This document shows, in pieces, positions 9,307 to 51,119 of a stretch of 64,000 nucleotides of DNA; within the stretch, counting starts at the first letter, position 1, and each line of letters begins with the position of its first letter. This DNA is from an uncultured Spirochaetota bacterium (GTDB lineage: Bacteria > Spirochaetota > Spirochaetia > SZUA-6 > Fen-1364), in assembly GCA_963734545.1 (NCBI GenBank), contig CAVTHO010000008.1, forward strand, positions 256,001-320,000. The letters are read 5' to 3'. Below the pieces are notes generated by a model that searched no databases, had not been told where the DNA came from, and worked only from the letters and a program-made list of their open reading frames with translations. A program made the translations under genes and the position numbers.

Positions 9307-9319
9307 CGGGCGGGGAGAA

Positions 9320-10696: not shown

Positions 10697-10770
10697 CAAC
10701 CCACGCTCCAATTGCAGCTTGATTCTATTGGATAATCTACTATTATTTGATTACCTGATAGGAGCAAACC

Positions 10771-11031
10771 ATGGTTGAGATGACTGTAACCGAATTCGCC
10801 AAGAAGCTGCGGGCGGTTTTTGACCGTATAGAGTACAAGGGAGAAGAAATAGTGCTCATACGGAACAAGCATAGAATCGCGCGGATTGTTCCCGGATCGC
10901 CCCATCTCACTGCTATTGAGGCGATGGGGGACTTGTATCGCACGCTTCCCGAGGAGGCAGCAGAAGATTGGCTCGAGGAAAGCCGCTCCACTACCAGGGT
11001 TTCCGAGGAGCCGCGCAACCCGTGGGAGTGA
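10771..11031 (+). CDS. Phd/YefM-family antitoxin
   Basis: MTVTEFAKKLRAVFDRIEYKGEEIVLIRNKHRIARIVP; stop overlaps the toxin start (GTGA). Confidence 0.85.
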   Translation: MVEMTVTEFAKKLRAVFDRIEYKGEEIVLIRNKHRIARIVPGSPHLTAIEAMGDLYRTLPEEAAEDWLEESRSTTRVSEEPRNPWE

Positions 11032-11444: not shown

Positions 11445-11452
11445 TCAGTCGA

Positions 11453-12964
11453 TTACACTCCCCGGGCCAGGTGGTAGTAGGCCGCGTTCCACCGGAGCTC
11501 GTTCTTGAACTGCGTGAGCGAGGTCTTCCCGTCGATCAGCAGGAACTCGATACCGGCGATTTCGGCAAAGTCCTCCAGGTGCCTTGCGGTCACCGGCGTG
11601 GCTGTAGCCCGGCGTGGTGCGCTCCGCCCGCGTGGATCCATGCGGCGGCTGCAATCTTGAGATCCGGCCGGGGAACCCACAGGGCCCGGGCAACCGGGCA
11701 GCTTCGGCAGCGGCGCATCCGGCGCAACCACGTCCACTTCGTTCACCACCATGCGGAATCTCGTCCCCATGTCGATCACGGTTGCGTTGACGGCAGGGCC
11801 GGCTGCCGCGTTGAACACCAGCCGGGCCGGGTCGTCCTTGCCGCCGATTCCCAGCGGGTGCATCTGCAGGGACGGTTTTCCATCAGCGATGGAGGGACAG
11901 ACCTCCAGCATGTGCGCGCCCAGCACCTTCATGCCGCCCTTGGGCCAGGTGATAGGTGTAGTCTTCCATGAATGTCGTTCCGCCCGTGAAGCCCGGCAGC
12001 CATGACCTTCATGGACCGCACAAGGGCAGCGGTCTTCCAGTCTCCCTCGGCGCCGAAGCCGTATCCATCCGCCATCAGGCGCTGGACGGCGAGACCCGGG
12101 AAGCTGCGCAAGACCGTGCAGGTCCTCGAAGCAGGTCGTGAACGCGTGAAATCCCCCGGCTTCCAGGAAGTGCCGCATCCCCAGCTCGATGCGCGCCGCT
12201 TCACGCAGGCTCGCGCGTTTGGTGCCGCCGGCGCGCAGGTCCTTGTCCACCGCGTACTGGGCGTCGTACTCGGTCATGAGCCGGTCCGCATCCGCGTCCG
12301 TCACGGCCTTCACGCTCGCCACAAGGTCTCCGACGCCGTAGCCGTGCACCGCGTAGCCGAACCGGAGCTGCGCCTCCACCTTGTCGCCTTCGGTCACGGC
12401 AACTTCACGCATGTTGTCGCCGAACCGGGCGATCTTCAGGCCCTGCGCGTCGTGCCAGGCGCCGGCGGCGCGGAACCAGGTGGCAAGCTCCTGCTGGACG
12501 TCCTCGTCCTGCCAGTGGCCGACCACGACCTTGCGGTCCAGGCGCATCCGTGCGCCGATGAAGCCGAACTCCCGGTCCCCGTGGGCGGACTGGTTGAGGT
12601 TCATGAAATCCATGTCGATCGATGACCAGGGGATGTCCCGGTTGTACTGGGTGTGCAGGTGGACAAATGGCTTGCGGAGCGCGGAGAGGCCGGCAATCCA
12701 CATCTTTGCCGGGGAGAACGTGTGCATCCACGTGACCAGCCCGATGCAGTTCTTTGCCGCGTTGGCTTCCCGGCACACCTCCAGGATGGCATCCGGGGTG
12801 GTGACCACGGGCTTGAAAACGACCTTGACGGGGATCGCCGGTGATGCGGAAAGGCTGCGCGCGATCTCCTGCGCGTGCTGTCCGACCTTGTCGAGGGTTT
12901 CCTTCCCGTACAGGCTCTGGCTTCCCGTGACGAACCAGGCCTCGAGCTGTTTCAGATCGATCAT
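11453..12964 (-). CDS. araA: L-arabinose isomerase (internal compensating indels)
   Basis: [43 protein letters not shown]; the [13 protein letters not shown] segment lies in another frame near 12000-12090. Confidence 0.93.
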
Positions 12965-13891
12965 GCGTTTTTCTCCTCTCCGTCGAACACGGCCTTCAGG
13001 GCCTCCAGGGATTGCACGAGCATGCGCTCAAGCTGCGGGATCAGAGTACTCGCGGCCGACCTTGGGCCCGCTGAGCTCAAGATACCCCGTGACGGCCTCT
13101 GCTGGGAAGCGCCCCGCGTTGCGGTCGATGAGCTGCTTCAGCCGGGACAGGTCCACGATGCCGCGCGCCCGCTCCTCCGGTGCGAAGCCGAATGTCGAAT
13201 TGAAGATCGCGTCGGTGTTCTTGAAATGGAACTCCCACATCCACGGGATCTCCAGCTCGAAGAGGCTCCAGTTGTCGTGCAGGACCCTGCCCTGCGCGTC
13301 CGCCACGCCGTGGGAGATGTCTCCGCAGAGGAGAAGCGGCACGGTGCTGTCCGGATTGGCGGCCAGGAACGGATCGAGCTCCGTTGCCAGCTCGCGCACC
13401 TCCTCGGGTGTCGAGGGGTACTCCCAGACCGATGACATGGGCTCGATCGTGAGGGTCTTCAGACCCGCCTTGCGGGCCGTGCCAAGCAGGCCTTTCATGC
13501 TGTCGAAGAAGCAGCGGATGCCGCGTTCCCGCAGGTGGGGCTGGTCGCGCAGCATGATGCCGGCGTTCGAGCCGGCAGATTCGGCCCCGAGCAGGGCTGC
13601 CACGTGGATGAGCCTTTCCCATCCTTTCCGCGCGCCCTCTTCGAGCAGTGGATCGCCGCTTGCGAACCCGCCCAGCTCCCGGTGGGACGTGAAGAGGCTG
13701 CTGATGCGCACGTCCCTCTTCTCCGCCTTCGCGCGGAGCTTCTTGAAATACTCGTCCTCTGCGCTGAAAGTCGGGTAGGAGCTCCCGATCTGCAGGCGGT
13801 GAATGCCGAGGCCCTGCATGATGTCGAAGAGCCACTCGAAGCTGTAGCGGCTCTCGATCGGATCACTTTTCACACCCAGGTGCACTTTCAT
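12961..13891 (-). CDS. Xylose-isomerase-like TIM-barrel sugar (phosphate) isomerase/epimerase; indel near 13040
   Basis: TIEPMS, GDISHG, EFHFKNTD and YLEL metal-ligand pattern; corrected C-terminus ends in an ATGA overlap with araA. Confidence 0.75.
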
Positions 13892-37990: not shown

Positions 37991-38077
37991 ACGCCGCTCT
38001 TTCTCCTTGTCTCAGAAGAGTCTCATTCCCAATGTACCATCCCGGCAGGGAAGCGCACCGCATTTCCCTGGCGGGCT

Positions 38078-38806
38078 TCACTGCAATCGCCAGAACAGGG
38101 GCCTCGGATTTTCCTGCTCCACGCACACTGCTCCCGCATGACCGGGGGACGGAAGCAGGTCACGCATCCACCAGTCCCGGGCCGGGCCGGAAGGCGTGTC
38201 GGCCAGCACGACTCTGAATCCCGAGTCGGCATGGCCGCAGGGGGGAAGCGCAAAGCGCGCGAAGCAATCGAAAAGCCCGATGCCCAGCGCTTTCGCGGCC
38301 GCCTCCCGGCGAGTCCAGAGAAGGAAAAATGCGCGGGTCCGCTCCTCTCCTTCGTGCGATCGCAGCCAGGCTGATTCCTGCTCGCTGAAGAATCCGTTCA
38401 GGATCGCTTCCCTCTCCGGTACCTCTCTCACCCGTTCGACGTCGATGCCGACCCGGAGGCCCCGGGAGACGGCGATGAGTGCCAGATCTCCCGCATGGGA
38501 AATGTTGAATTGAATGGAAGGGTCCGCGCAATCGAGGGCGGGTTTCCCGGAATTCCCTGCCGTGAAGGAAAGTGAGCGCGGTTCCTCGAGAAGGTACTTT
38601 GCCAGGACGACGCGCAGCGAGGCGCGGGCGGCGGCACATCGTGCGCGGTCCGCCGGACGTACGAACCGACCGCACTGGTCCCTTTCCTCCGCGGAGAGAG
38701 CGCCCTCCAGGCGCTCACGCTCCTCCGCCGGCAGGGCGAGGGAGGCACGCCAGATGTGCAGGCTCCCCTGTTCCAGGAGAAGCTGCCGTGGAGGGTGAGC
38801 CCACAT
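38078..38806 (-). CDS. Sfp-type 4'-phosphopantetheinyl transferase
   Basis: GKP, FNISHAG, VGIDVE, WTRREAAAKALGIGL. Confidence 0.92.
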   Translation of the reverse strand: MWAHPPRQLLLEQGSLHIWRASLALPAEERERLEGALSAEERDQCGRFVRPADRARCAAARASLRVVLAKYLLEEPRSLSFTAGNSGKPALDCADPSIQFNISHAGDLALIAVSRGLRVGIDVERVREVPEREAILNGFFSEQESAWLRSHEGEERTRAFFLLWTRREAAAKALGIGLFDCFARFALPPCGHADSGFRVVLADTPSGPARDWWMRDLLPSPGHAGAVCVEQENPRPLFWRLQ

Positions 38807-38879
38807 GGGGAAGGATGATACGGGTCCCTGCGCGCCTTGACAACAACCCCCTGTTTCGGTTTATAGATGCATGCATACC

Positions 38880-40127
38880 ATGAGAAATCCCACAGATGTC
38901 AGGGTCGTCATTACCGGCATGGGCACGATCAACCCGATTGGAAGCAGCGTGCCCCAGTTCTGGGAAAACCTCATCAAGGGCACCTCGGGAGTTCGGCGTA
39001 TCTCGAGCTTCCCGATCAACAACTATTCCGTCCAGATTGCCGGGGAAGTCGATCTGCCGGACCTTGCGCCGTATTTCAAGAACCGGAAGATGACAAGAAG
39101 GCTCGACCGGTTCGTCGTCCTGGCGCACATCGCCGGTGCCCAGGCCATGCGGGATTCGGGCCTGGACGTGGAAAAGGCTCCGCACCGGTACGGCGTGATC
39201 ATCGGAACCGGTGAAGGCGGCGCCGCAACACGCTATATCAACACGAAAAAAATCGTCGAGGATGGGATGCAGGCAGCGTCCCCGTTCTTCGCCATGTGCA
39301 TTCCCAGCACCGCATCGGGATTTTTCGCCATGGAGTGGAACCTCCAGGGCCCGTGTTTCTCCGTGAACTCGGCGTGTGCCACCGGAAATCATGCCATGGG
39401 AGTTTCGGCCTCGCTCATCAGGATGGGAATGGCTGACGCAATCTTTACCGGCGGGGCCGAAGCGGTGATCAACCCCACCGGGCTCGCCGCATTCGGAAAC
39501 ATCATGGCTCTTTCCGAGCGCAACGACTCTCCGGAAACCGCCTCACGTCCATTTGACAAGGACAGGGACGGGTTCGTGTTGAGCGAGGGAGCAGGCGTTC
39601 TCTGCCTGGAAGAGCTGGAGCACGCGAAACGCAGGGGTGCCACGATCTACGCCGAGCTCACCGGGTACGGATTCACCGGAGATGCCTACGATCTAGTGGC
39701 GCCGCACCCCACCTCGCGCGGCTCTGCCCGGGCCATGCAGGACGCGCTGGACAACGCGCACCTGAACCCTGACCAGGTGGACCTGATCAACTGTCACGCC
39801 GCCTCCACCTCGCTGGGGGACCTTGCGGAGAGCAAAGCGATCAGCGCGGTCTTCAAGGATCTCGCTTCGAAAGTTCCGTCCCACAGCACCAAATCCATGA
39901 CCGGCCATCCCCTTGGCGCGGCAAGCGCACTGGAAGCCATCGCCGTTATTCTGGCCATACAGAAGGGCGTGATACATCCGACCATCAATCAGTTCGAGCA
40001 GGACCCGCGGATCGCGCTCAACGTGGTGCGAAAGCCCCTGGAGGCAAAGGTCAATCACGTGGTTTCAAACGGTTTCGGGTTCGGCGGTCAGAACGCGGCG
40101 ATAACGCTCTCGCGCTACACGGGTTGA
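38880..40127 (+). CDS. fabF: Beta-ketoacyl-ACP synthase II
   Basis: VVITGMG, SACATG (Cys), NCHAAST and KSMTGH (His-His), SRPFDKDRDGF, NGFGFGG. Confidence 0.9.
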   Translation: MRNPTDVRVVITGMGTINPIGSSVPQFWENLIKGTSGVRRISSFPINNYSVQIAGEVDLPDLAPYFKNRKMTRRLDRFVVLAHIAGAQAMRDSGLDVEKAPHRYGVIIGTGEGGAATRYINTKKIVEDGMQAASPFFAMCIPSTASGFFAMEWNLQGPCFSVNSACATGNHAMGVSASLIRMGMADAIFTGGAEAVINPTGLAAFGNIMALSERNDSPETASRPFDKDRDGFVLSEGAGVLCLEELEHAKRRGATIYAELTGYGFTGDAYDLVAPHPTSRGSARAMQDALDNAHLNPDQVDLINCHAASTSLGDLAESKAISAVFKDLASKVPSHSTKSMTGHPLGAASALEAIAVILAIQKGVIHPTINQFEQDPRIALNVVRKPLEAKVNHVVSNGFGFGGQNAAITLSRYTG

Positions 40128-40160
40128 CACCGAAATCGAGGCACGGATCCCGCCGTAGAC

Positions 40161-40199
40161 TACGACTTTAGTCCCAGATCGAACCGCGACCATAAGACT
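40161..40199 (+). promoter_or_regulatory. Putative NarL/LiaR-type response-regulator sites
   Basis: TACGACTTTAGTC (GACT-N2-AGTC palindrome) with a degenerate copy GCGACCATAAGACT about 24 bp downstream. Confidence 0.4.
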
Positions 40200-40282
40200 T
40201 CCTCAAACCATTCCTCCGACCGACGCGCCCGCGGCGCCTGACGTGCAATGCTTGATCATGTGCAAGTCACAGGAGGAAAGAA

Positions 40283-40453
40283 ATGAACAGGACACAATCG
40301 GAAAAGCAGGCTCGACGGGAAAGCAGGACAAACCGCGGCGCGCAGCGTGAGCAGGCCAGATCAGGGCGCTCTGCCCGGGAATCTCTCAAAGCTGCCGCTG
40401 ACCGGCAGATCGCCGAGATCGAGCGGACATTCACGTCCCGCTATGAATGGTAA
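40283..40453 (+). CDS. 56-aa basic small protein (absent from the ORF track)
   Basis: AGGAGG RBS; MNRTQSEKQARRESRTNRGAQREQARSGRSARESLKAAADRQIAEIERTFTSRYEW*. Confidence 0.55.
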   Translation: MNRTQSEKQARRESRTNRGAQREQARSGRSARESLKAAADRQIAEIERTFTSRYEW

Positions 40454-40463
40454 GGGACCCGAA

Positions 40464-41612
40464 ATGAATGCGATCAGCATCCCTTCGTCATCAGCGGGCA
40501 TGAAACCCATGGCATCCCTGGTGCCCGCGAATCGAATCGTCTATCTGGACGTGCTGAAGGTCGTGCTCACGATCCTGGTGATCGCGCACCACGTGGGACA
40601 GGCCTATGGCCCAACCGGCGGATACTGGCCCGTGCAGGAAACAGCGCGGGCCGCCTTCCTGGGCCCCTTTTTCACCGTGAACCGCTCATTTTTCATGAGC
40701 CTGTTTTTCATGATTTCGGGGTATTTCATGGTCGGCGCGTACCAACGCAACGGGTTTGCCGCTTTCATCCGCAGCCGATTCGTGCGGCTGGGCGTGCCGG
40801 TACTCGCCTTTGCGGCACTCATGCTTCCCGCGCGGATTTTCATCTTTGGCGAGCACATTGCGCGCTGGGATGACTACATAAACGCAGGGCACCTCTGGTA
40901 CCTCGAGCACGTGCTGCTCTTCAGCGTGGTCTATGCGCTCTGGCAGAGGATTCGTGAGTCGTCGCAGCGGAACGCGCCGCAGCGCGGCCGGATATCGAAG
41001 CGCGCGGCGCCCCGCCTGCTGCCGACCTGTGCGGCCCTCCTTCTGGTGGCCGTGGCGTGCGGGGCGGTGCGGATCTGGTCTCCCATCGATCGATGGCTGA
41101 ACCTGCTGGGCTTCCTTCGCGTCGCCTTTGCCGACGTGCCCCGGGACCTTGCATTCTTCATCTTCGGTGCAATGGCCTTCAGGCACGGCTGGTTTGAAAG
41201 CTTCCCCACGCGGAGAGGCATGATCTGGCTTGCCGTTGGCGTCGTGTCGGCACTTGCCTGGTATGCATGGTCCCTGCTCCCGCACACCGGCCTCACCCTC
41301 AGCGGCATGGGCTTCGGGATCGTCTACCCGATCTGGGAGGAGCTGGTCTGCTTCGGGATGTGCATCGGGCTGCTGGTGCTGTTCCGGCAGGCGGTCTCCG
41401 GCCAGGGGCCGTTCGGCAGGCTGCTAGCCGCAAACCAGTACTCGGCGTACTTCTGGCACCCCCTGCTGATCGTCGGGATCCAGATGGGCTTCCTTGCCCT
41501 GTCCCTCGGCCCGTTCGTCAAGTTCGTCGCCGTCACGGCGCTGGGCGTGCCCGTTGTCTTCTTCTGGAGCTGGCTGGTACGAAGAATCCCGGCCGTGCGC
41601 TCGGTGCTGTAG
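40464..41612 (+). CDS. Acyltransferase family 3 (OpgC/MdoC-like) membrane protein
   Basis: RIVYLDVLK..LVIAHH, FFMSLFFMISGYF, RFVRL, GHLWYL, YSAYFWH. Confidence 0.88.
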   Translation: MNAISIPSSSAGMKPMASLVPANRIVYLDVLKVVLTILVIAHHVGQAYGPTGGYWPVQETARAAFLGPFFTVNRSFFMSLFFMISGYFMVGAYQRNGFAAFIRSRFVRLGVPVLAFAALMLPARIFIFGEHIARWDDYINAGHLWYLEHVLLFSVVYALWQRIRESSQRNAPQRGRISKRAAPRLLPTCAALLLVAVACGAVRIWSPIDRWLNLLGFLRVAFADVPRDLAFFIFGAMAFRHGWFESFPTRRGMIWLAVGVVSALAWYAWSLLPHTGLTLSGMGFGIVYPIWEELVCFGMCIGLLVLFRQAVSGQGPFGRLLAANQYSAYFWHPLLIVGIQMGFLALSLGPFVKFVAVTALGVPVVFFWSWLVRRIPAVRSVL

Positions 41613-41621
41613 ATCTCCCCC

Positions 41622-41649
41622 AGGTCGCCTGTGATTTCACGGGCGACCT
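41622..41649. terminator. Hairpin between convergent genes
   Basis: AGGTCGCCTGTG-ATTT-CACGGGCGACCT, 12-bp stem with one G-U pair, 10 bp after the stop. Confidence 0.55.
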
Positions 41650-41792
41650 TCGCGGGATTTTCCCGACCACCCCGCCGAACCTCACGAAAATGCGGAATTC
41701 AGAAATGCGCCTTCTAAAATCGCCGAAAACATGAGGGTCACGGCCCGCCTCGGCGTTTTTTGCAGGGAATCGGGGACGAGTCCGGCGGACCT

Positions 41793-42314
41793 CTAAGGGA
41801 AGCAGACTTCGCCGATGGCGGTGCAGGCAACCTTGCCGTCCGCGATGACCTGTCCGATCATCGTGGCAAAGTACTCGTCGTACTCCAGCTTCCTGGCAAG
41901 CAGAACGACCTCGCGGCCGGGCAGGACGGGCGCCAGGTAGTACGCGCCCACGATTCGGGTGGCCCGCACATTCATCGGCTGATTCTGAGCCGGGACCGCC
42001 GTGCTGCGGCTGCCCAGGAAATAGTGCAGGCAGAGGCCGAGCTGGCCGATCATCTCCACCTCCAGGCAGCCCGGATATACAGGATAGTCGGGAAAGTGAC
42101 CGGCAAATATCGGATCGTCGGAAGAGATGAAACGCGACCCTGCGATCGCCTCTTCATCGAAGCTGACCCCCGTCAATCGATCCACGAGCAGGAACGGCTC
42201 CCGATGCGGGAGGATGCGCTTGATGTCGTCCCTTCCCCATGCAAGGGACGTGAGACGGTCTATCGGAATGAGCGGCTTCTTTCGATTCTCCCGGAGAAGA
42301 GCGTCGTGGTCCAC
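41793..42314 (-). CDS. FabZ/FabA-like 3-hydroxyacyl-ACP dehydratase
   Basis: LPHREPFLLVD and GHFPDYPVYPGCLEVEMIGQ (His/Glu dyad). Confidence 0.88.
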   Translation of the reverse strand: MDHDALLRENRKKPLIPIDRLTSLAWGRDDIKRILPHREPFLLVDRLTGVSFDEEAIAGSRFISSDDPIFAGHFPDYPVYPGCLEVEMIGQLGLCLHYFLGSRSTAVPAQNQPMNVRATRIVGAYYLAPVLPGREVVLLARKLEYDEYFATMIGQVIADGKVACTAIGEVCFP

Positions 42315-42315
42315 T

Positions 42316-43575
42316 CTACGCGCGGAGGCCTTTGGCGATCACGTCCTCGATGATATTGAGGGCCGTGTCCATCTGCTCTTTCGTGAACTGCGTGGACACC
42401 GAGATGCGGAATCTCCGTGAATCCGCCGGCACCGCGGGAAAGTCCACGGGCTGGAGAAACAGCCCGCGCCGCTGTATCTCGTAGGCGAACTGGATGAGCT
42501 TTTCACCCGAGGAGCCGATGATGATCGGTATCACCTGGGATTCGCTCTGACCGAGATTCAGCTTCAGGGCCTGGAGGCCTTTCTTCAGATACGCGACGTT
42601 CTTCCAGAGCAGGTCACGGAGGCTCGAATCACGCGTGGCCACTTCCAGCGCTTTCATCAGCCCCCCTACGACTGGAGGTGAGGGCGCGCAGGAGAAGTTC
42701 CAGGGAGAGGAATATCCCTTGAGGTACTGGATGATGCGGGCGTTGGAACAGATGAACCCGCCCACACCGCCGAAGGACTTGCTGAACGTCCCGAAGCTCA
42801 CGCCGATGTCGTGCTCGAGACCGAAATGCTCGGCCACGCCCCGGCCATTCGGGCCGAACATGAGCGTGGAATGTGCTTCGTCGATATAGGTGGCCGCCTT
42901 GTAGTGGGCGCATACCTTCAGGATTTCCGGCAGCCGTACCAGGTCACCGTCCATTGAATAGACGCCTTCGAAGGCAACCAGCACGCGCTTGCCCTTGCAC
43001 TTCTCCAGCATGGCTTCCAGGGAGACCGGGTCGTTGTGGGAGAAGAACAGCATCTTTGCGCCGGAGAGGGTGCCGCCGTCTATCAGGCTCTTGTGGCACT
43101 TTTCATCAAGGACGAACATGTCCCCCTTGCGCAGGAGCCCCTGGATTGCGCCGACATTCCCGCCCAGCCCGCTGGAAAACAGCAGGCAGTCTTCCTTCTG
43201 CTTGAACTCCGCCAGCTGGCGCGCGAACTTCACGTGCAGGTCGAAAGTGCCGGACAGAAGCGGGGCGCCGGACGCGCCCAGCCCGTAGATATCCAGCGCT
43301 TCCTTTGCCGCCTGGATGACCTCGGGATGCGTGGAGAGCCCGAGGTAGTTGTACGAGGTCATGTTGATGACTTTGCGGCGCTTGCCGTCGAGGCTGCTCA
43401 GGACCTCCGTGCCCGCGCGCGGGGCGGCCAGGAGCTGCTGCCCGAAGAGACCCATGGCGGCCTGGATCTTCGGGTGCTCGATCCACGACTGGAAATCGCT
43501 CGGAGGGGTCAGGACGTCCGGGCTGTCATTGAAGAAAAAGTCCGCCAGGCTGAAGCTGAGGGCCTTGTCAGCCAT
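42316..43575 (-). CDS. PLP-dependent alpha-oxoamine synthase (SPT/BioF/KBL family)
   Basis: SYNYLGL, CHKSL, EGVYSMDGD, IDEAH, GTFSKSFG (PLP Lys), FPAVP..RRFR. Confidence 0.9.
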   Translation of the reverse strand: MADKALSFSLADFFFNDSPDVLTPPSDFQSWIEHPKIQAAMGLFGQQLLAAPRAGTEVLSSLDGKRRKVINMTSYNYLGLSTHPEVIQAAKEALDIYGLGASGAPLLSGTFDLHVKFARQLAEFKQKEDCLLFSSGLGGNVGAIQGLLRKGDMFVLDEKCHKSLIDGGTLSGAKMLFFSHNDPVSLEAMLEKCKGKRVLVAFEGVYSMDGDLVRLPEILKVCAHYKAATYIDEAHSTLMFGPNGRGVAEHFGLEHDIGVSFGTFSKSFGGVGGFICSNARIIQYLKGYSSPWNFSCAPSPPVVGGLMKALEVATRDSSLRDLLWKNVAYLKKGLQALKLNLGQSESQVIPIIIGSSGEKLIQFAYEIQRRGLFLQPVDFPAVPADSRRFRISVSTQFTKEQMDTALNIIEDVIAKGLRA

Positions 43576-43822
43576 TGCCTTTGTTCACGTATTCGAGGAA
43601 TTTCACCGCCAGCTCGTCGATGTTGTTGATGTCCGTCAGCTCGGAGCGTGGAACCTTGATTTTCAGCTCCCGCATGGACGTGGAAACCACTTCGATCATG
43701 TCCAGGCTGTTTGCGCCATAATCTTTCATGGATTTCTGAGGGTCGATGCTGGCGGCGTCGATATCGTCGCTGTTGGCGGCGATGTTCTTCTTGATCACCT
43801 CGATCACCGCTTCTTTTGTCAT
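43568..43822 (-). CDS. Acyl carrier protein, AcpK-like
   Basis: DYGANSLDMIEVV Ppant site; KIKVPRSEL..NIDELA resembles beta-branching ACPs. Confidence 0.88.
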   Translation of the reverse strand: MTKEAVIEVIKKNIAANSDDIDAASIDPQKSMKDYGANSLDMIEVVSTSMRELKIKVPRSELTDINNIDELAVKFLEYVNKGNG

Positions 43823-43840
43823 TTCGCGCTCCTTATCTTG

Positions 43841-44656
43841 TTAAGTCTCTTTATCTGGGGACCGTTCCGCAAGATACCGGCCCATCGCATTATCCCGAAA
43901 GGGGAGGCCGTAGTCAACGCTGATTATCTGGCCGTTCACGGCGTCCAAAAGCCCGCTGCAGAGGGCCAGGACGGCCTTTCCGCACTCCGCGGGGGTCAAA
44001 ATCATGCTGGAGGGAATACCTTGCGTGGCTATGTACTTGAAGAAATCCTCTCCGAAGATCGCCTTGAAGGAATCCGTGTTCACCGTGCCGAACCGCAGCA
44101 CGTTCACCCGTGATCCCTCGGCCTGAAGAGGCACGGAGAGGTACCGGGAAAAAAACTCCAGAAGTGCCTTCGAAGCCGCCACGAAGTCGTACCCAGGGTA
44201 GAAATGGTCCGGGCCGTCGCTGGAGATGGCGAGGACATACTTCGGATAGCTGCCGAACCTCTCCTTGATCCTGCGGGTATAGTCGATGAGCGGCCAGGTG
44301 CTGTACTCGAGGGTCTTGAAGAGCGACCTCTTCTTGTAGTCCGCCAGCGTGAGGGTGCGCAGCGCGAAGCTCACATTGCTGATGAAGATGTCGATCTTCC
44401 CCGCGACCGACGCGATCTGCTCCATCAGCCGGACGGTATCCTCCTCCTCCGCGGCATCCGCTTCGTAGAACATCGGGCGCAGGGCGCCCCGCGACTCGAA
44501 CTCCGCCGCCACCTTCTCCTGGTCGGCGCTTCCCCACTTGTAGGTCAGGTATACCTGTGCCCCGGCTTCGGCGAGCGAGAGCGCAGATGCGAGTCCGATC
44601 CCCTTGGTTCCCCCCGTAATGAGAGCTGTCTTCCCCCGCAGATCCACGCTGACCAT
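43841..44656 (-). CDS. SDR, FabL-like enoyl-ACP reductase
   Basis: TGGTKGIG; YDFVAASK is the Y-X6-K spacing of enoyl reductases. Confidence 0.75.
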   Translation of the reverse strand: MVSVDLRGKTALITGGTKGIGLASALSLAEAGAQVYLTYKWGSADQEKVAAEFESRGALRPMFYEADAAEEEDTVRLMEQIASVAGKIDIFISNVSFALRTLTLADYKKRSLFKTLEYSTWPLIDYTRRIKERFGSYPKYVLAISSDGPDHFYPGYDFVAASKALLEFFSRYLSVPLQAEGSRVNVLRFGTVNTDSFKAIFGEDFFKYIATQGIPSSMILTPAECGKAVLALCSGLLDAVNGQIISVDYGLPFRDNAMGRYLAERSPDKET

Positions 44657-44673
44657 GACTGCCGCCTTCTTTC

Positions 44674-45423
44674 CTATTCGGGGTAGAGCTCGTTGATCGT
44701 GCGGCGGGTTTCCGGGAAGGAAAAACTGATCCGGTGCATCAAGTCTTCCTGGAGCCGCGCATCCACCAGGAGCTTCTTTTTCTTCGCGCTCAGGGTGTGC
44801 TTCAGCAGGGATATGGATCGGGCATCCTTCTCCGCGATCTGCTCGGCCAAGTCCCGGGCCCGGGCCAGGACCTCGCTCCTCGGCAGGATGTAGTTGATAT
44901 GGGTGCCTCTGCCCTCGAGCTCGCTGCCCCGGAAGCGCTTGCCGGTGAACATCATCTCGTTTGCAAGAAAGGGACCGACGAGCTCCGCCAGCAGGGTCGT
45001 GGTGCCCATGCCGGGGGTGAAGCCGAGGCTCATGAATACCGCCCCGTACCGGCTTTCTCTGGCCGCGATCACAATGTCGCAGCAGAACCCGACCGCGAGT
45101 CCCCCTCCTATGGCGTGACCCTCCATCGCGGCGATCACCGGAAAGGGCATCTCGAGAAGCCGCTCGCAGATCACGAAATCCTTGACCGCCGCCTTGCCGT
45201 CGCACAGATCGATCAGCTCCTTCTTGTGCGCGCCGCCGCAGAAGACATCCGGGAGGCCGGAGAGAACGAGGACCTTGGGCCGGCGTTCCTGTTCCAGCTC
45301 TTCCAGTGCCTCGAGGAGCTCCGCGATGAACTCCGAAGAGAAAATATTGCGGCCCCTGGTGTCATTCATCTTCAACCAGGAGACTCCGGAGGGCTCGGAG
45401 GTCAGCTTCATCCGTTCGCTCAT
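44674..45423 (-). CDS. PksI-like enoyl-CoA hydratase fold (ECH2, decarboxylase)
   Basis: VIAAMEGHAIGGG, FMSLGFTPGMGTT, C-terminal EDLMHRISF. Confidence 0.85.
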   Translation of the reverse strand: MSERMKLTSEPSGVSWLKMNDTRGRNIFSSEFIAELLEALEELEQERRPKVLVLSGLPDVFCGGAHKKELIDLCDGKAAVKDFVICERLLEMPFPVIAAMEGHAIGGGLAVGFCCDIVIAARESRYGAVFMSLGFTPGMGTTTLLAELVGPFLANEMMFTGKRFRGSELEGRGTHINYILPRSEVLARARDLAEQIAEKDARSISLLKHTLSAKKKKLLVDARLQEDLMHRISFSFPETRRTINELYPE

Positions 45424-46262
45424 GGCGCACCCGCCTTCCCTTCCCGCGCGCTCGAAAGGGCAAGAGAACGCGACGGCCTGAACCGGGAGAACCAGGCCGG
45501 CACGTGCCCCTCCTGGAATGCCTTCACACCGTCCAGGGTGGGTGGATCGTGCATCATCTCCACCAATCTGCGGCGCGCGAGCAGGCTGCCCTGCTTCGGC
45601 GTCTTGCCGATCAGCTCCGCGGTAAACTCCTTGACAGCGGCAAGCGCGCGGGGGGACGAGCACAGGAGGCGCTTGAAGATCTCGCGCACGCGGCGCTCGA
45701 TATCCGCGCCGGCCACCAGCTCGTCCACGAGATTCAGACGCAGCGCTTCGGAGGCGGAGATCCGGTGCGAGCTCATCACGAGGTAGCGCGCCGTCTGCGG
45801 CGTCACGCGCAGCGCGAGCATGTAGGGCAGCACGTTCGCGGGTATCAGCCCGAAAATCACCTCCCCCAGCTCGAATGTGGCCCGCTCCCCGGCCACCACG
45901 ATGTCGCACGCGCACGCCAGACCGACCCCGCCGGCCTTCACCTCACCCTCGACAAGGCAGACAACCGGCAGTGCCGCGGAGAATATCGTCTCCAGCACGC
46001 CGGCGTAGCTGTCCACCGCCTTCTCCGCATCCGCCCGGGCCGCGGACCCGTGCGCCGCCAGCAGCGCAAGGTCCATGCCCAGGCAGAAGACAGGCCCGTT
46101 GGAGCGCAGGAGAACGGCGCGCACGCGCGGGTCCTTCAGGGAGCGATCCAGCGCGGCTCTCAGCTCCCGCAGGCCTTCGGGGCTCAGGAGGTTGCCGTGC
46201 TCTCCGTCATTCAGGGTGATCACCGCGACGTGGGAGTCCTCGTACTGCTCGATCAGCGCCAC
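45420..46262 (-). CDS. PksH-like enoyl-CoA hydratase (ECH1, HMG dehydratase)
   Basis: FCLGMD, GEVKAGGVG..ACD, GEVIFGLIPANVLP, terminal VPAW. Confidence 0.82.
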   Translation of the reverse strand: MALIEQYEDSHVAVITLNDGEHGNLLSPEGLRELRAALDRSLKDPRVRAVLLRSNGPVFCLGMDLALLAAHGSAARADAEKAVDSYAGVLETIFSAALPVVCLVEGEVKAGGVGLACACDIVVAGERATFELGEVIFGLIPANVLPYMLALRVTPQTARYLVMSSHRISASEALRLNLVDELVAGADIERRVREIFKRLLCSSPRALAAVKEFTAELIGKTPKQGSLLARRRLVEMMHDPPTLDGVKAFQEGHVPAWFSRFRPSRSLALSSAREGKAGAP

Positions 46263-47497
46263 CGGCTGAGCTCCACTCGTAGGAGCGGTAGAAATCCTTG
46301 ACCTGACGAAGCACGAGGCGCTTCCTGCCCCGGTAGTGCCGGTCATACCAGCCCTCCGGGCAGGGATAAATCGGGCGTGAAGCAGGGCTGCTCAATGGCC
46401 TCCTCCCGCATTTTCTCGATGGTCTCGTACTCCGCCACGCTCACCTCGCGGCGGGCATCCAGCTCGGCGTCGATGCCCATGCCGGCAACTACCTCCCGGG
46501 CCTCGGGACACAGAAATCCGCTGTAGAACTCGCCGATTGCCCCGGAGCCGTAGGAAAAAAAGCTGATACGGTCTCCGGCCTTCACGCCCTGCGCGCTCAT
46601 TGCGATCCCGCATATGCCGAGGAAGTTGCTCGCCCCATAGGTGGAGCCGCATCGGCGGGCATACAGGAGCGAGGGTTGGGTCTTCTGCGTGAAGCTTTCC
46701 CGTATCTCGATCTTGGTGCGCGCCCGGGCCAGGTTGCAGAGGGTCCGGTGCGCCTGGAATGCCATGCCGGGAAAGGGAGTGTGGTAGCAGTTCTGGGCAA
46801 AGTAGCTGTCGAAATCCACCGTCTCCCCGGTCGTTTCCACATAATCCCGATAGGACCCTTCCAGGGCATCGAGATACGTGTACAGGCTCACCTCGTTGTT
46901 GCCCATCTCGTGCCGTGCACTGGGCCGGAATGTATCGTAGACATCGGAGGTCCACGTGCCTCTCTTGGACAGCTCGTACTCCACCACCCTTGGTGAGTCG
47001 CTCACGAGAGCGGCCGCGGCCACGCCGCCGAGGACGAACTCTTCCTTCGCGTTCAGGTGCATGCGGGAAAAGTCGGTCGAGATGACCAGCGCTTTCCGCC
47101 CCCGATTCAGCCCGGAGGCGATCCAGTTGAGCGCCGTGTCCAGGGCCGCCACGCCGCTGTAGCAGGCGTGTTTCGTCTCGAAGTTCCGCACGTTGGCGGG
47201 CAGACCCAGCGCGCCGTGCATGTTGGTGCTGATGGGTTTGCCGAAATCAACCGAGCTCTCGGTTCCGACCACGAGCATGCCGATGGCCTGCCTGTCCTCC
47301 CCCTCCAGCATCGGGGCGGCCGCGTTGACCCCCATGGTCACGGTGTCCTCGTAGAGGGGATTCAGGGAGCGTGTGTCGATCAGGAAATCCGCAACCACTT
47401 TCTGCGGGTCCATGCCCCTGGCCTCGGCCAGCTTCTTCTGGTCCAGTATCAGGGAGCTGCCGTAGATGTTGATCTTTTCGATGCCGATGCGGCGCAT
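46207..47497 (-). CDS. PksG-like HMG-(acyl-ACP) synthase; indel near 46360, 3' end uncertain
   Basis: EDTVT, GTESSVDFGK, FETKHACYSG (Cys), DTFRP, YHTPF (His), FSYGSG; C-terminal FYRSYEW in a shifted frame. Confidence 0.9.
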
Positions 47498-47505
47498 ATT
47501 ACTCC

Positions 47506-48261
47506 TTATGGCGCGTAGCTCAGTCCGCCGGCCACCCGGATCACCTCGCCGTTGATGAATCCGGCTTCCGCGCCCGCGAGGTAGTGCACAAGGCTGGCAA
47601 TCTCCTCCGCGGTGCCGATCCGCTTGATCGGACAGTATTCCAGCCAGATCTCGTGCAGCTTTGTGGCCATATGCTGGTCCGTCATGTCCGTTTCCACGTA
47701 GCCGACGGTGACGATATTGGACGTGATGCCTCGGGGGCCGTATTCTCGCGCGAGGGTCTTGGTGAGCCCGATGAGCCCGGCCTTGGCCGCGGCATAATTG
47801 ACCTGGCCGCTGGAGCCCTCCTGCGCGAGAGAGGAGATATTGATGATACGGCCCCAGCGTTTGCTCATGAGGTGAGTGAGAAAGCTGCGGATCACGAAAA
47901 ACGGGCCGGAGAGATCGGCGGCGATCACTTCCTGCCACTGTTCGTCGCTCATCATCGCGGCCGTGTTGTTTCTGACGATGCCGGCATTGTTCACCACGAT
48001 GCCCAGGCTCGGAAAATCCTCCATCACCTGGTCCGCCACCCTCTCCACCTCGGCGCTGTCCGTGACATTCATCCGGTAGGCTTTCAGCGCTGCCGCGCCC
48101 TCCAGCCCGGCAGCCAGGGTCTGTGTCTCCCGCATGGCCGCCTCGTTGCCGACATACGTGAACGCGGTCGGGATGCCCTCCTTGACCAGGCGCAGAACTA
48201 TGGCGCGCCCTATGCCGCGGGAACCGCCCGTCACGAAAGCTGCCGGTAAACCTGGTTCCAT
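47506..48261 (-). CDS. 3-oxoacyl-ACP reductase (FabG-like)
   Basis: TGGSRGIG, NNAGI, NISS, GQVNYAAAK. Confidence 0.9.
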   Translation of the reverse strand: MEPGLPAAFVTGGSRGIGRAIVLRLVKEGIPTAFTYVGNEAAMRETQTLAAGLEGAAALKAYRMNVTDSAEVERVADQVMEDFPSLGIVVNNAGIVRNNTAAMMSDEQWQEVIAADLSGPFFVIRSFLTHLMSKRWGRIINISSLAQEGSSGQVNYAAAKAGLIGLTKTLAREYGPRGITSNIVTVGYVETDMTDQHMATKLHEIWLEYCPIKRIGTAEEIASLVHYLAGAEAGFINGEVIRVAGGLSYAP

Positions 48262-48264
48262 TCC

Positions 48265-49548
48265 CTACCCCTCGTAGCGCCTGATCAGGCTGCAGGCGTT
48301 GATGCCGCCGAACCCGAAGGAGTTTTTCAACATGTAGCGGACCTTGTGCTCCACGGGGCCCCTGGCGCAGACATCGAGGTCCACTTCCGGGTCCAGGCGG
48401 TCGATGTTGATCGTGGGATGGAGGCGGCCGTGCTTCATCTGGAGGAGCCCGGCAATGGTCTCCACGATGGGGGATGCCCAGCAGGTGTGTCCCAGCATCG
48501 ACTTGGCGGCGTTGAGCTTCATCCGGTACGCGTGCGCGCCGAATGCTTCCTTGATGGCCCTGATCTCTTCAAGGTCCCCGCCCGGCGTGCCCGTGGCGTG
48601 ACAGCTCGCGAAATCGACTTCCGAGGGGTCTGTCCCGGTGGACACCAGCAGCTCGCGGATCAGGCGTGCCTGGATTCCAGCAGCAGGCGCGGGCAGGTGA
48701 CAGGCGTTGGCATTGGCCCTTACGCCCATCACTTCCCCATGAATTCGGGCGCCGCGGCTCAACGCGTGCCCCAGCTCTTCCAGCATCAGCGTCCCGGCCC
48801 CGTGCGAGTAGACGAACCCGGCCCGGTCGGCGTCGAACGGCCGCGAAGCCTTTTCCGGGTGATCCTGGAATTCCGGCTTTACAACGACAGCATTGATGAT
48901 CACGGAGGCCTGGATGTCACCGGGGGACATATCGAAAAGCCCGCCGGCAATCACCGCCAGGTCGGACTCCCCGCTCATGATGTCGCGGAAGCCCTCCCGG
49001 AGGGCGAGGTTGCCGCTCGCGCAGGCCCCGCCGATGGTGAAGGTGGGGCCATGCAGTCCCAGGAGCTCCGTGATGACGGCAGGCACGTTCGGATCGATAC
49101 CCTCGACCCCGCTGAGGGGATCCAGGTACTCCACGTCCTGAAGGAAGCGCTTGGAATTCTCGTGGATGTAGTTCGAGTTCAGGTTATGTCCGCCCACGAT
49201 GACGCTGGTGCGGAATGGATCGGTCTCCGAGGCGAAGAGCCCGGCATCCTGCCAGGCAGCGAGAGTGCAGAGAACGGCCATTTTCGCTGAAAAGGTCGTG
49301 GAACGGAACATCTTCTTTGCCTTTTTGAAGGTGTCCGCACCCAAAGCGTCCTTGAAACGTTCCAGGGCCCCCAGGCAGTCGTAATCGCCCAGGTCACCCC
49401 CGATTTTGCACTCTATATTGGTCATATCGAGGCTCTGCCAGCGGCGGATCCCCGATTTCCCGCTTATCAGGTTCTGATAATAGCCCTCCAGCGTATCACC
49501 GAGCGGGTTGATGGTCCCCATGCCGGTGATAACGGCGCGACGTTTCAT
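48265..49548 (-). CDS. Stand-alone ketosynthase, PksF/FabF-like, catalytic Cys retained
   Basis: VGGHNL, TIGGACASG, CHATGT, KSMLGH, NSFGFGGIN; AAGGGGAGG RBS. Confidence 0.88.
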   Translation of the reverse strand: MKRRAVITGMGTINPLGDTLEGYYQNLISGKSGIRRWQSLDMTNIECKIGGDLGDYDCLGALERFKDALGADTFKKAKKMFRSTTFSAKMAVLCTLAAWQDAGLFASETDPFRTSVIVGGHNLNSNYIHENSKRFLQDVEYLDPLSGVEGIDPNVPAVITELLGLHGPTFTIGGACASGNLALREGFRDIMSGESDLAVIAGGLFDMSPGDIQASVIINAVVVKPEFQDHPEKASRPFDADRAGFVYSHGAGTLMLEELGHALSRGARIHGEVMGVRANANACHLPAPAAGIQARLIRELLVSTGTDPSEVDFASCHATGTPGGDLEEIRAIKEAFGAHAYRMKLNAAKSMLGHTCWASPIVETIAGLLQMKHGRLHPTINIDRLDPEVDLDVCARGPVEHKVRYMLKNSFGFGGINACSLIRRYEG

Positions 49549-49563
49549 CTCGCGCGCCTCCCC

Positions 49564-49630
49564 TTGTGCGATACGGCGTACTCGCCGAACGGGTACTCCC
49601 GTACTCCGCACAATCTCGCGGTATTCCGCG
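49564..49630 (-). promoter_or_regulatory. Structured 5' leader with three A(G/A)UA-tetraloop hairpins
   Basis: mRNA sense: CGCGG-AATA-CCGCG, then TTGTGCG..CGCACAA enclosing ACGGG-AGTA-CCCGT and CGGCG-AGTA-CGCCG, abutting the RBS. Confidence 0.55.
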
Positions 49631-49701
49631 CAGTTGTCGGTCTTTCCAGGGCCTGGTGCCATCCCATGATGGGTGAGTGTAATATTTCAGCACCCCTCGA
49701 T

Positions 49702-50675
49702 TCAATAGCTGCCTCGGGCCCCGATGCGCGCCGCGAAAGCCTGAATTTCGTCACTTCTGCCCGAAAAAGCGCAAAGAGAGGTCTTCCAGACAACGCGTCT
49801 CTTGCCGGTCGGGCCCAGCGGCGGCGAACAGCAGGAAAACTCGATGCTGTCAGGCACGCCGCCGGTTCGGCAATCCACCCGGGCGTCATCCCTGCCCTCC
49901 TCCCTCGCAAAATCCTTGACCAGGAGCTGTGCGCGCCCGGACTCACGCTCCTCGAGGCAGAGGATCCGGTTTCCCGCATCCGCGCCCGGGATTTCGATCT
50001 TCGCGGACTGGGGACCCCGCAATCGTACTACCGCGCAGTCTTCGGCGAATTCGAGGCTGCGGGAGGGCAGGGTCACGAGGCTCGTCTCCGTCCACCGTTT
50101 GCGGAGAGGCACGCGAATCTCCGCCCCCATGCGCGCCTGGGTGATGTTCCAGAGCCACACGGGCGCGCGGCAATCGCCCGAGATCTCGAGGACCGTCTCC
50201 TCCTCATACCCGGCCTGGCGCAGCCAGGTCGTGCCCCAGAGGTCGGCCAGCCGCGCCTCTGTCATCGGCCTCACCCGGCGGATGAGCCTGAACCGGATCC
50301 GGGACCCCGTCTTCCAGGCCAGCGCCTCGCCCTTGTTCTCCATGGCATATCCGGATTTCTCGGATGAGCGGGCAAACTGGCCCGGGTCGATGGCGGGGGG
50401 GACCTCGGGGCCTTCGGCGAGGAACTCCTCTTCCGGAGCCAGCCACATCCGGTCCCCCCCGGGTTGATCCAGCCGTCGTCCTTTGATCCGATGTGCAGAA
50501 GACGCAGAAATCCGGGATTCACCCAGAGCGCGTTGTCACCCCGCCAATGGGGCCACACCCCGAGCACGCGCCCGTACTCGGGCAGCACGAGCACGGCGCC
50601 GTCCGCGCCCGATTCGAGGACCGCGTACTCGACGCCGAGGGTCTTCAGGCTGACAACGGTCTCTTCGAGTCCCAT
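49702..50675 (-). CDS. Hypothetical protein (DUF6786-like); indel in a G-run near 50458
   Basis: PEYGRVLG..NALWVNP..WINPGG(DR)MWLAPE joins ORFs 50271-50675 and 49702-50448. Confidence 0.6.
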
Positions 50676-51119
50676 TCAGTTTGCCGGCGCGCGCCGCGCA
50701 ATCACGTCCTGGGACATGACGAGCAGGGTCGTGCGCTCCTGCCAGCCGATTTTTCTCCAGAATCGCCGGCCGGCCCGGTTTTTCGCCAGGACGAAGATGT
50801 GGCACTTCCGCATGCCCAGATCGGCGAGCGCGGCGAGGCTTCGCTCGACCAGGGCGCGGCCGATACCCGTGCGCCGATGGCTGTGCGCGACGGCCAGATG
50901 ATTGAGGAATCCCCTGCGGCCGTCGCTGCCGCCCAGCAGCGCCCCCACGAGAGTGCCGTCCTCCTCCGCGACAAAGCTCAATCCTGGGTTGTGCGCGAGG
51001 TACCGGGCGATGTTCCGCTTTTCGTCCGCCTCGCTCAGCCCGATCCCCTCCATGCTCTGCCAGAGGGCATACGCCGCCTCGTAGTCGGCGATTGTGAACT
51101 CACGCAGCGTCACGCTCAT
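50676..51119 (-). CDS. GNAT acetyltransferase (YpeA-like)
   Basis: GSDGRRGFLNHLAV..HRRTGIG; N..GRRFW..GW. Confidence 0.88.
   Translation of the reverse strand: MSVTLREFTIADYEAAYALWQSMEGIGLSEADEKRNIARYLAHNPGLSFVAEEDGTLVGALLGGSDGRRGFLNHLAVAHSHRRTGIGRALVERSLAALADLGMRKCHIFVLAKNRAGRRFWRKIGWQERTTLLVMSQDVIARRAPAN

Follow-up and report, generated by a model that had tools for sequence, protein, structure and literature searches.

Beta-branching genes joined to a discrete fatty-acid-type synthase and an alpha-oxoamine synthase in an uncultured Spirochaetota bacterium: a candidate cluster for methyl-branched sphingoid-type bases

We describe a gene cluster in a 64,000-nucleotide stretch of DNA from an uncultured Spirochaetota bacterium (assembly GCA_963734545.1, contig CAVTHO010000008.1, positions 256,001 to 320,000; the stretch is hereafter called the window, and its contig C8). 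Nine genes on the minus strand (41793-49548) join a beta-branching cassette, consisting of a 3-hydroxy-3-methylglutaryl (HMG) synthase (HMGS) and two crotonases (ECH1 and ECH2), to a discrete set of type II fatty acid synthase (FAS) enzymes with their own acyl carrier protein (ACP) and to a stand-alone alpha-oxoamine synthase (AOS). The nine genes keep their order and strand in related genomes, and the cluster is independent of modular polyketide synthases (PKSs), the usual partners of such cassettes. We consider it probable, though by no means secure, that the discrete synthase makes a methyl-branched acyl-ACP, which the AOS would condense with an amino acid to give a 3-keto-sphingoid-type base.

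Results

Gene content and layout of the cluster

The window has a G+C content of about 0.60-0.70, and its contig belongs to a 5.14-Mb assembly of 10 contigs which is 89% complete. The identities of the nine open reading frames (ORFs) were obtained from Pfam, NCBIfam and Protein Data Bank (PDB) searches. They are transcribed in the order first ketosynthase (KS1), FabG, HMGS, ECH1, ECH2, enoyl reductase (ER), ACP, AOS and dehydratase (DH), and are listed below in this order.

48265-49548, minus strand: KS1, beta-ketoacyl-ACP synthase, first gene of the operon (PF00109, PF02801)
47506-48261, minus strand: FabG-type 3-ketoacyl-ACP reductase (adh_short_C2, 5.7e-55)
46343-47497, minus strand: HMG synthase of the HMG-ACP synthase type (PF01154, PF08540)
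45420-46346, minus strand: ECH1, crotonase, putative HMG-ACP dehydratase (ECH_1, 1.7e-41)
44674-45423, minus strand: ECH2, PksI/CurF-type decarboxylase (NF005496 above cut-off)
43841-44656, minus strand: enoyl-ACP reductase of the FabI/FabL type, a short-chain dehydrogenase/reductase (SDR) (PDB matches, Tyr-x6-Lys)
43568-43822, minus strand: dedicated ACP (PF00550, 1.2e-8)
42316-43575, minus strand: AOS, pyridoxal phosphate (PLP)-dependent acyl-thioester:amino-acid C-acyltransferase (PF00155, 1.9e-50)
41793-42314, minus strand: FabZ-like 3-hydroxyacyl-ACP dehydratase, last gene of the operon (PF07977, 6.8e-17)

Neighbouring genes overlap by 3-8 bases at HMGS/ECH1, ECH1/ECH2 and ACP/AOS, where the ACP stop overlaps the AOS start by 8 bases, and the remaining gaps are 1-18 bases, all values depending on the start codons chosen in this analysis. 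Because the genes overlap or lie this close together, the nine were regarded as one operon. A first-pass annotation, made by a model from the letters of this DNA, had listed the same nine genes and had noted that no modular PKS or nonribosomal peptide synthetase (NRPS) accompanies them; all nine were recovered, and no modular PKS or NRPS gene was found among the scanned window ORFs of at least 200 aa. The extent given there was correct for the nine genes but too short for the conserved system, since a second ketosynthase (KS2) and a 4'-phosphopantetheinyl transferase (PPTase) fall outside it.

38871-40127, plus strand: KS2, FabF-like elongating ketosynthase, tenth conserved member (NF005589 above cut-off)
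38078-38806, minus strand: Sfp-type PPTase (PF01648, PF22624)

Conservation of the cluster

A scan with the AOS over one genome per species gave 69 loci, on which the window proteins were placed by tblastn. Cluster genes are present in 44 of the 69, and 29 loci reach across all of the expected region. In 27 of these 29, the full set of nine is retained with unchanged order and strand, which excludes chance, and the linkage of the AOS to the HMGS and ECH genes, whose loss the first-pass annotation would have counted against its proposal, is conserved to the same degree. Of the two remaining loci, L044 is a frameshifted copy and L020 holds only ACP, AOS, DH and PPTase. KS2 lies inside 26 of the 29 full loci, usually divergent just past DH, and upstream on the same strand in the FCPU426-type loci. 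The PPTase is adjacent in 28/44 loci (22 of the window type and six of a second type). None of the other cluster genes occurs in the 25 loci where the AOS is at most 41% identical. According to the record titles of the bins, which can be wrong, the 44 loci belong to at least four phyla (Spirochaetota 32, Aminicenantes 4, FCPU426 2, Chloroflexota 1, 'delta proteobacterium' 1 and no taxon 4). Among 400 other Spirochaetota species genomes, sampled evenly, 21 encode an HMGS with at least 59% identity.

The cluster genes of L044 are 45-99% identical to those of the window (ACP 99%, FabG 95%, DH 45%), and the AOS match is in pieces; we suspect a mis-binned or error-rich Spirochaetota contig.

Independence from modular PKSs

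Four ketosynthase (KS) matches were found in the window genome, all of them discrete and in open frames of 428-539 aa, with which tblastn agrees, and the PP-binding matches are all in frames 89-171 aa long. At its 89% completeness, this genome showed no multi-domain frame with KS or ACP. Four of the five cluster-bearing relatives checked (G332, G380, G111 and G226) also contain discrete KS only, and the fifth, G057, has one 2312-aa two-KS frame on another contig. As the window genome and four of five relatives have no modular partner, the co-occurring modular PKS that would have spoken against the first-pass proposal was not found.

G332 and G380 are closed single-contig genomes (99% complete), which suggests that cultured strains may exist. 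Both carry a 12-gene form of the cluster, in which a GCN5-related N-acetyltransferase (GNAT)-type gene and an acyltransferase (AT) gene precede the nine (GNAT-AT-KS1-FabG-HMGS-ECH1-ECH2-ER-ACP-AOS-DH), and KS2 lies nearby in G332.

Ketosynthases and fatty-acid-type enzymes

Together with KS2, the cluster encodes a complete discrete type II FAS set, comprising KS (Cys-His-His), ketoreductase (KR; Tyr-x3-Lys), DH (the His/Glu of FabZ), ER (Tyr-x6-Lys) and ACP. KS1 scored 308.5 on the PksF-type NCBIfam model NF005490 (cut-off 445) and 293.9 on fabF TIGR03150. Its Cys motif is present in 29/29 readable orthologues, and each of its two His motifs in all orthologue rows but two, which are frameshifted. 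Cassette KS0 enzymes reportedly carry a Cys-to-Ser exchange; since KS1 keeps Cys-His-His, it is by sequence predicted to be catalytically complete and not a condensation-dead KS0. KS2 scored above the cut-off of NF005589 (469.9 vs 387) and reached 484.9 on fabF TIGR03150 (cut-off 493.75), and its Cys-His-His was read from the translation. A KS and chain-length-factor pairing of KS1 with KS2 was considered and rejected, both having full triads.

FabG scored 240.3 on TIGR01830 (cut-off 297.75) and the DH 81.5 on the FabZ model NF000582 (cut-off 113), with Tyr-x3-Lys in the former and HFPxxPxxPG and E-x-x-x-Q in the latter read from the translations. The best PDB matches of the SDR are FabI 1ulu (2.7e-21), FabL 3oic (3.9e-20) and FabI 2p91, and its Tyr-x6-Lys aligns with theirs, although its score on the FabL model NF005975 was 105.8 (cut-off 328). 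From these three best solved relatives and the aligned motif, the SDR is predicted to be an enoyl reductase, which agrees with its first-pass label as a FabL-like ER; a role as ketosphinganine reductase was rejected on the same two grounds. Because the members other than KS2 score below the housekeeping equivalog cut-offs, they were taken to be paralogues and not the cell's own FAS, of which the FabD-FabF genes lie on contig C5. No malonyl-CoA:ACP transacylase was found in the window's cluster; a FabD-like AT is encoded upstream of KS1 in 11/44 loci, as it is in G332 and G380.

Beta-branching enzymes and ACP

In the PDB ranking of the HMGS, CurD (4.6e-68) was followed by the Myxococcus xanthus HMG-CoA synthase (8e-65), PksG (2.7e-63) and MvaS-type enzymes (about 1e-55), the margin over PksG being small (CurD 233, M. 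xanthus 223 and PksG 218 bits). Its Glu/Cys/His triad, as defined in the accessible part of PMC11522927, aligns with that of CurD, and the corresponding ES..., ACYSG and HTPF motifs are conserved. A second HMGS of the genome adjoins, on contig C6, an FMN_dh-family gene that we read as IDI-2-like, and is therefore taken as the mevalonate-pathway copy; on this ground, the window HMGS was rejected as a mevalonate enzyme.

ECH2 is the sole component that passes a curated cassette model (PksI-type NF005496, 271.5 vs cut-off 215). Its PDB matches are PksI (6.5e-44) and CurF (1.1e-38), with the next at 1e-28, and its catalytic His aligns with the PksI counterpart (numbered His230), a residue universally conserved in PksI-type decarboxylases (PMC7501309). 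ECH1 scored 142.4 on the PksH-type NF005498 (cut-off 250), and its best PDB matches are generic crotonases, including the isohexenylglutaconyl-CoA hydratase 4zu2; a chain of 8ahq, an enoyl-CoA hydratase, gave 2.3e-23. ECH1 is thus a crotonase without a clear PksH signature. The best model for the ACP is the AcpK-type NF005502 (54.7, cut-off 79), and the motif GANSLD(M/I)IEVVS occurs in nearly all of 40 orthologue rows. Beta-branching acceptor ACPs are marked by a Trp flag (PMC12560621), which this ACP lacks, because 39/40 orthologues hold no tryptophan at all. Among the first-pass labels, PksI-like therefore holds for ECH2 by a score above the cut-off, whereas PksF-like, PksH-like and AcpK-like name best matches below their cut-offs.

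Identity of the AOS

The best PDB match of the AOS is the serine palmitoyltransferase (SPT) of Sphingobacterium (3a2b/8guh, 2.3e-75, 257 bits), and the next, at 222 bits, is a chain of the type of BioF and 2-amino-3-ketobutyrate CoA ligase (KBL). The motifs GT(F/L)SKS, around the PLP lysine, and DEAH are conserved across the clade and correspond to the Lys and His of PLP fold-type I; the Acidobacteriota SPT-like clade reads GTFSKS, and the genome's own KBL reads TFGKA. This true KBL is encoded elsewhere and scores 534, above the cut-off of 460. For the cluster AOS, none of the NCBIfam equivalog cut-offs for SPT, BioF, KBL, 5-aminolevulinate synthase (ALAS) and CqsA was reached. It scored 322.9 on bioF TIGR00858 (cut-off 426.45), 332.7 on the BioF/Kbl subfamily model (535) and 302.9 on KBL NF005394 (460), and the CqsA-type NF005526 gave the lowest score among the AOS equivalogs (177.7 vs 428).

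Neighbouring genes and related loci

A GNAT-type protein of about 380 aa is encoded directly upstream of the cluster, before the AT, in 11/44 loci as well as in G332 and G380, and in G276 a copy is found on the same contig, no more than about 4 kb away. About 10/44 loci contain epimerase-family genes (24-100% identity). In loci from the AOS scan labelled Acidobacteriota, Thermoanaerobaculia or Planctomycetota, an AOS is flanked by an epimerase-family reductase and a homologous GNAT (36-45% identity); over its matched part, this AOS scores 501 bits on the SPT-CFB model. We take bCerS to be a GNAT-type enzyme and CerR an epimerase-family enzyme, so that this arrangement of GNAT, SPT-like and epimerase genes would mirror Spt/bCerS/CerR clustering. 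The accessible part of PMC11334938 describes that three-gene layout and uses it to define Spt-like proteins. A PDB sequence search with the GNAT protein gave no real match, and the copies in L010 and L053 had no match in Pfam or NCBIfam. PF00583 is reached only by the GNAT paralogue of the window genome itself (33 bits), and the atlas name of the family is 'N-acetyltransferase family protein'.

Several observations were made beside these. A GNAT-type gene of about 380 aa lies on contig C8 at 326163-327314 (L074:6163-7314), about 6 kb past the window end; its product is 41% identical to the GNAT inside the 12-gene clusters, and the genome holds about five paralogues. In some Spirochaetales-labelled loci (L017:13959-16357 and L010:13868-16791), genes for an LPG_synthase_TM-type membrane protein, an NAD-dependent epimerase-family reductase and GT4 glycosyltransferases come after the cluster and could serve glycolipid tailoring or export. 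The window genome also has a second ACP-AOS pair outside the window (contig C8:846400-853500; L072 about 4100-13500). Genes for a UbiA prenyltransferase and an OYE-type oxidoreductase stand before it, and those for a DAGK_cat lipid kinase, an AIR-synthase-related protein, a discrete KS and a radical SAM/SPASM protein come after it. The AOS of this pair reaches no NCBIfam cut-off (best bioF, 311 vs 426), and the locus may be another amino-lipid or sphingolipid-type cluster. On contig C7 (897859-898659; L081:2859-3659), the first 170 residues of a 267-aa frame match the N-terminal part of SPT-CFB with 185 bits, and the tblastn match with the AOS is in two pieces; this is possibly a broken SPT-like gene. 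Finally, a mini-cluster of KS, S-adenosylmethionine (SAM) methyltransferase, FabG and an HMGS about 40% identical to that of the window is found in G119 and G126 (L078:6451-11035 and L077:1103-3053), with no ECH or AOS detected beside it, and an HMGS of this type occurs in 10/400 other sampled Spirochaetota genomes.

Within the window, three further results concern the surroundings of the operon. First, a membrane acyltransferase gene lies between KS2 and DH:

40347-41612, plus strand: membrane acyltransferase, Acyl_transf_3 (PF01757, 4.2e-32)

Its homologue occurs in one of the 44 related loci (L004), which marks the protein as lineage-specific, and its place in the pathway is doubtful. Second, a 248-aa frame directly upstream of KS1 (49702-50448, minus strand) has no Pfam or NCBIfam match and is kept only in the three closest loci (L003, L004 and L044); it may be a lineage-specific gene or a non-gene. 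Third, the remaining scanned window ORFs have ordinary chromosomal functions, such as mannose metabolism, NAD synthase, and VWA and GGDEF proteins. Rfam and tRNA scans of the whole window each gave 0 matches, and a promoter/terminator scan of 38000-51000 gave 2 promoter-like sites against 2.4 expected.

Discussion

As shown here, the branching genes, the discrete FAS-type enzymes and the AOS form one conserved unit, and a pathway can be proposed from their predicted activities. The cluster's own ACP would probably be activated by the adjacent PPTase, and malonyl loading would presumably be carried out by the housekeeping FabD, because the window's cluster has no AT. KS1 and KS2 would catalyze the condensations, and FabG, the FabZ-like DH and the FabI/FabL-like ER the reduction of the chain. 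At one or more beta-keto stages, HMGS would add an acetyl unit, after which dehydration by ECH1 and decarboxylation by ECH2 would give a beta-methyl-enoyl-ACP that the ER could saturate. The AOS would then condense the methyl-branched acyl-ACP with an amino acid, for which serine is the leading candidate, with loss of CO2, and the chain would leave the carrier as a 3-keto long-chain amino base, from which ceramide-like lipids could be made. A sphingolipid-like product is suggested by SPT as the nearest solved relative of the AOS, by the SKS motif, by the apparent translational coupling of AOS to ACP and by the GNAT gene upstream. That a dedicated synthase and a separate AOS can make sphinganines is described for PfSgaAB in the accessible part of PMC12134224. 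The first-pass proposal of a cassette working on a discrete FAS-type ACP is thereby upheld in the KR/DH/ER set, the lack of a modular PKS and the AOS linkage. The picture differs from it in detail: KS1 keeps its triad, the ACP stays below the donor-type cut-off and has no Trp flag, and the AOS lies below the SPT cut-offs.

As to where the branch is introduced, we lean tentatively towards the start of the chain, which would give an iso-branched base without the need for leucine. The single ACP and the catalytically complete KS1 suggest that KS1 itself supplies, from malonyl-ACP, both acetyl-ACP (by decarboxylation) and acetoacetyl-ACP (by condensation), so that both HMGS substrates would be held on one carrier. 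The cassette and the ER would convert these to isovaleryl-ACP, which KS2, together with FabG, DH and ER, would extend into an iso-branched chain. Branching at the start would solve the timing problem of an iterative system, because HMGS need recognise only the C4 stage. According to the accessible part of PMC11522927, CurD accepts acetoacetyl on its donor ACP with 3-fold lower efficiency.

Alternatively, the same machinery might branch the chain internally or repeatedly, with HMGS competing with FabG at later cycles, so that the AOS would release mid-chain or multiply methylated chains which mimic isoprenoids. We regard this as rather unlikely, but it is the strongest of the alternatives. PKS-pathway HMGSs accept long and varied acceptor chains, as far as the accessible part of PMC11522927 describes them, the cluster's own KR, DH and ER are what the processing of methyl-bearing intermediates needs, and no sequence feature ties the HMGS to acetoacetyl. 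However, a one-ACP iterative system offers no obvious timing for internal branching, and the two best matches of the HMGS, CurD and the M. xanthus HMG-CoA synthase, are said in the same part of PMC11522927 to act on the same acetoacetyl substrate, the small margin over PksG applying here as well.

Instead of a membrane lipid base, the product could be a small or medium diffusible amino-ketone, an alpha-hydroxyketone, a pyrazine-type signal or a specialised amino-polyketide. CqsA-type AOS enzymes make autoinducers and are among the families matched by the AOS, the patchy distribution (21/400 genomes, several phylum labels) is typical of accessory metabolism, and no thioesterase or chain-length factor is present in the cluster. 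Such a product is nevertheless improbable: the CqsA-type score is the lowest of its kind, the loci share no sensor kinase or regulator next to the cluster, and long saturated chains are what a full KR/DH/ER set with an elongating KS of the FabF type suggests. The GNAT acyltransferase, glycosyltransferases and LPG-synthase-TM-type gene beside the cluster in some loci also fit lipid tailoring.

Two further explanations retain little weight. The AOS could serve cofactor or amino-acid metabolism as an enzyme of the BioF/KBL type, for instance on a route to a biotin precursor, with the FAS-like genes providing its acyl substrate, and the bioF and BioF/Kbl subfamily scores are indeed as high as those on the SPT models; yet both are below their cut-offs (426 and 535), a separate true KBL is present in the genome, the loci share no bioA, bioB or bioD-like gene, and we know of no place for an HMGS cassette in pimelate synthesis, so that we hold this explanation to be very improbable. 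Weakest of all, and already largely refuted, is a trans-acting cassette for a modular PKS elsewhere with unrelated FAS-like and AOS genes: in the sources consulted, modular PKSs are the only experimentally established context of such cassettes, bar one type II aromatic PKS (PMC10006238; PMC11522927, accessible part), and G057 has its two-KS frame, but the window genome (89% complete) and four relatives, two of them closed, have discrete KS only, and AOS, ACP, ER, DH and KS are linked to the cassette in 27/29 loci.

The proposed pathway to a branched sphingoid-type base has also to be weighed against a number of findings. First, the AOS fails every SPT cut-off (NF047600, 311.5/640; NF047599, 276.6/500; NF047603, 230.1/670), as do four AOS orthologues from other loci, and its scores on the BioF/KBL models are about equal to these. 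In the AOS tree, the cluster AOS form their own clade (SH-aLRT 100), but this clade joins the SPT-like clade with a support of 35 and on long branches; as the tree has 66 rows with the genome's own KBL as the sole labelled reference, weak deep nodes and long outgroup branches, it was rejected as evidence either way. Second, the GNAT family is common (131/401 genomes, including 109/379 without the cluster). All 22/22 genomes with a cluster HMGS in the phylum sample hold a family member, but this co-occurrence is weak evidence because the genomes are kin and the family is broad. The GNAT and epimerase genes are likened to bCerS and CerR by their layout. Third, two variant loci depart from the pathway. 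In L020 (9039-11743), ACP-AOS-DH-PPTase have the gene for a 1656-aa beta-helix protein on one side and ABC transporter genes on the other, with no branching half within 9 kb upstream; in the Chloroflexota-labelled L037 (569-6400), there is no ER, ECH2 and ACP leaving no room for it, and no DH, and KS2 directly follows AOS. Fourth, no sequence feature fixes the branch position, the chain length or the amino acid. Finally, the proposal is drawn from the genes, and the 23 sequencing runs that carry this stretch are all DNA, mostly wetland metagenomes (shares up to 0.43), with no RNA run among them.

The cluster would be of interest for several reasons. Beta-branching chemistry has been worked out on modular PKSs and, according to one citation, on a single aromatic type II PKS, and here it has apparently been recruited into a lipid-type, fully reducing, discrete synthase. 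Currently, bacterial sphingolipid producers are identified by Spt/bCerS/CerR homology, an approach that would overlook or misplace a separate AOS clade with its own branched-chain supply. Should the product be a membrane lipid, the cluster could be a gene-to-lipid handle for uncultured wetland Spirochaetota, Aminicenantes and FCPU426, and a small group of enzymes with which methyl-branched chains could be made from malonyl-CoA alone. In its fullest form, which we put forward with still more reserve than branching at the chain start, the proposal is that an ACP-bound, mevalonate-like priming or branching route, a private FAS and a new SPT-like clade together make iso- or multiply methyl-branched sphingoid bases from malonyl units in anaerobic wetland and sediment bacteria of several phyla. 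If true, this would be a third, independent bacterial sphingolipid route, and orphan methyl-branched nitrogen lipids of anoxic peat and sediments might stem from it. In full-text literature searches of incomplete coverage and without supplements, we found no report joining an HMGS or beta-branching cassette with an oxoamine synthase, SPT, sphingolipid or aminolipid, and in a full-text search, likewise of incomplete coverage, we found nothing on spirochaete sphingolipids. Both halves of the system are known, and joined as they are here they appear to be undescribed.

Compared with known systems, the cluster shares parts with several. In the canonical cassette, a donor ACP, a condensation-inactive KS0, HMGS, ECH1 and ECH2 act on a PKS acceptor ACP (PMC10006238). 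The HMGS triad, the PksI/CurF-type ECH2 with its His and the crotonase ECH1 are shared with the PKS cassettes of bacillaene (PksF/AcpK/PksG/H/I) and curacin (CurB-F), and with VirC-E and BonF-I/N, as is the presence of a small stand-alone ACP and a stand-alone KS in one cluster. Unlike these cassettes, the present one has no modular PKS, no Trp-flagged acceptor ACP and one ACP instead of donor and acceptor; its KS1 keeps Cys-His-His, in contrast to the condensation-inactive KS0 (PMC10006238), and it is joined to FAS-type KR, DH, ER and KS and to an AOS. An HMGS cassette with discrete synthase components is also present in the fogacin type II PKS (Sato et al. 2019, cited in the accessible part of PMC11522927). 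By its title, that system has KS and chain-length-factor pairs, whereas full-triad KSs, complete reduction and predicted AOS release are found here.

On the release side, PfSgaAB(C) of Pseudomonas fluorescens MYb115 similarly combines a chain-building synthase with a stand-alone AOS, through which, independently of the canonical Spt pathway, the chain is set free as a long-chain base (PMC12134224, accessible part). There, the synthase is one multidomain iterative type I PKS, for which the same part of the source describes no branching cassette, whereas here it is a discrete type II system with HMGS, ECH1 and ECH2; the two AOSs are likened by description. As in Spt-bCerS-CerR of Caulobacter (PMC11334938, accessible part), an AOS nearest to SPT is paired with an ACP, and a GNAT and an epimerase-family reductase stand beside it in part of the loci. 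Unlike Spt, the AOS described here forms a separate clade below the SPT cut-offs, and its acyl chain is proposed to be made by the cluster's branched-chain synthase instead of being drawn from the cellular pool of fatty acids.

Particularly, branching at the chain start has a counterpart in the Aib route (alternative isovaleryl-CoA) of M. xanthus, in which HMG-type condensation, dehydration, decarboxylation and reduction reportedly give an isovaleryl primer for iso-branched lipids. Its HMG-CoA synthase is presumably the one solved in PDB 5hwo-5hwr, which we take to be the M. xanthus match of our HMGS (8e-65). The logic of the two routes would be shared; the Aib route uses CoA thioesters and a different decarboxylase and reductase, whereas the route proposed here would be ACP-bound and tied directly to chain elongation and to the AOS.

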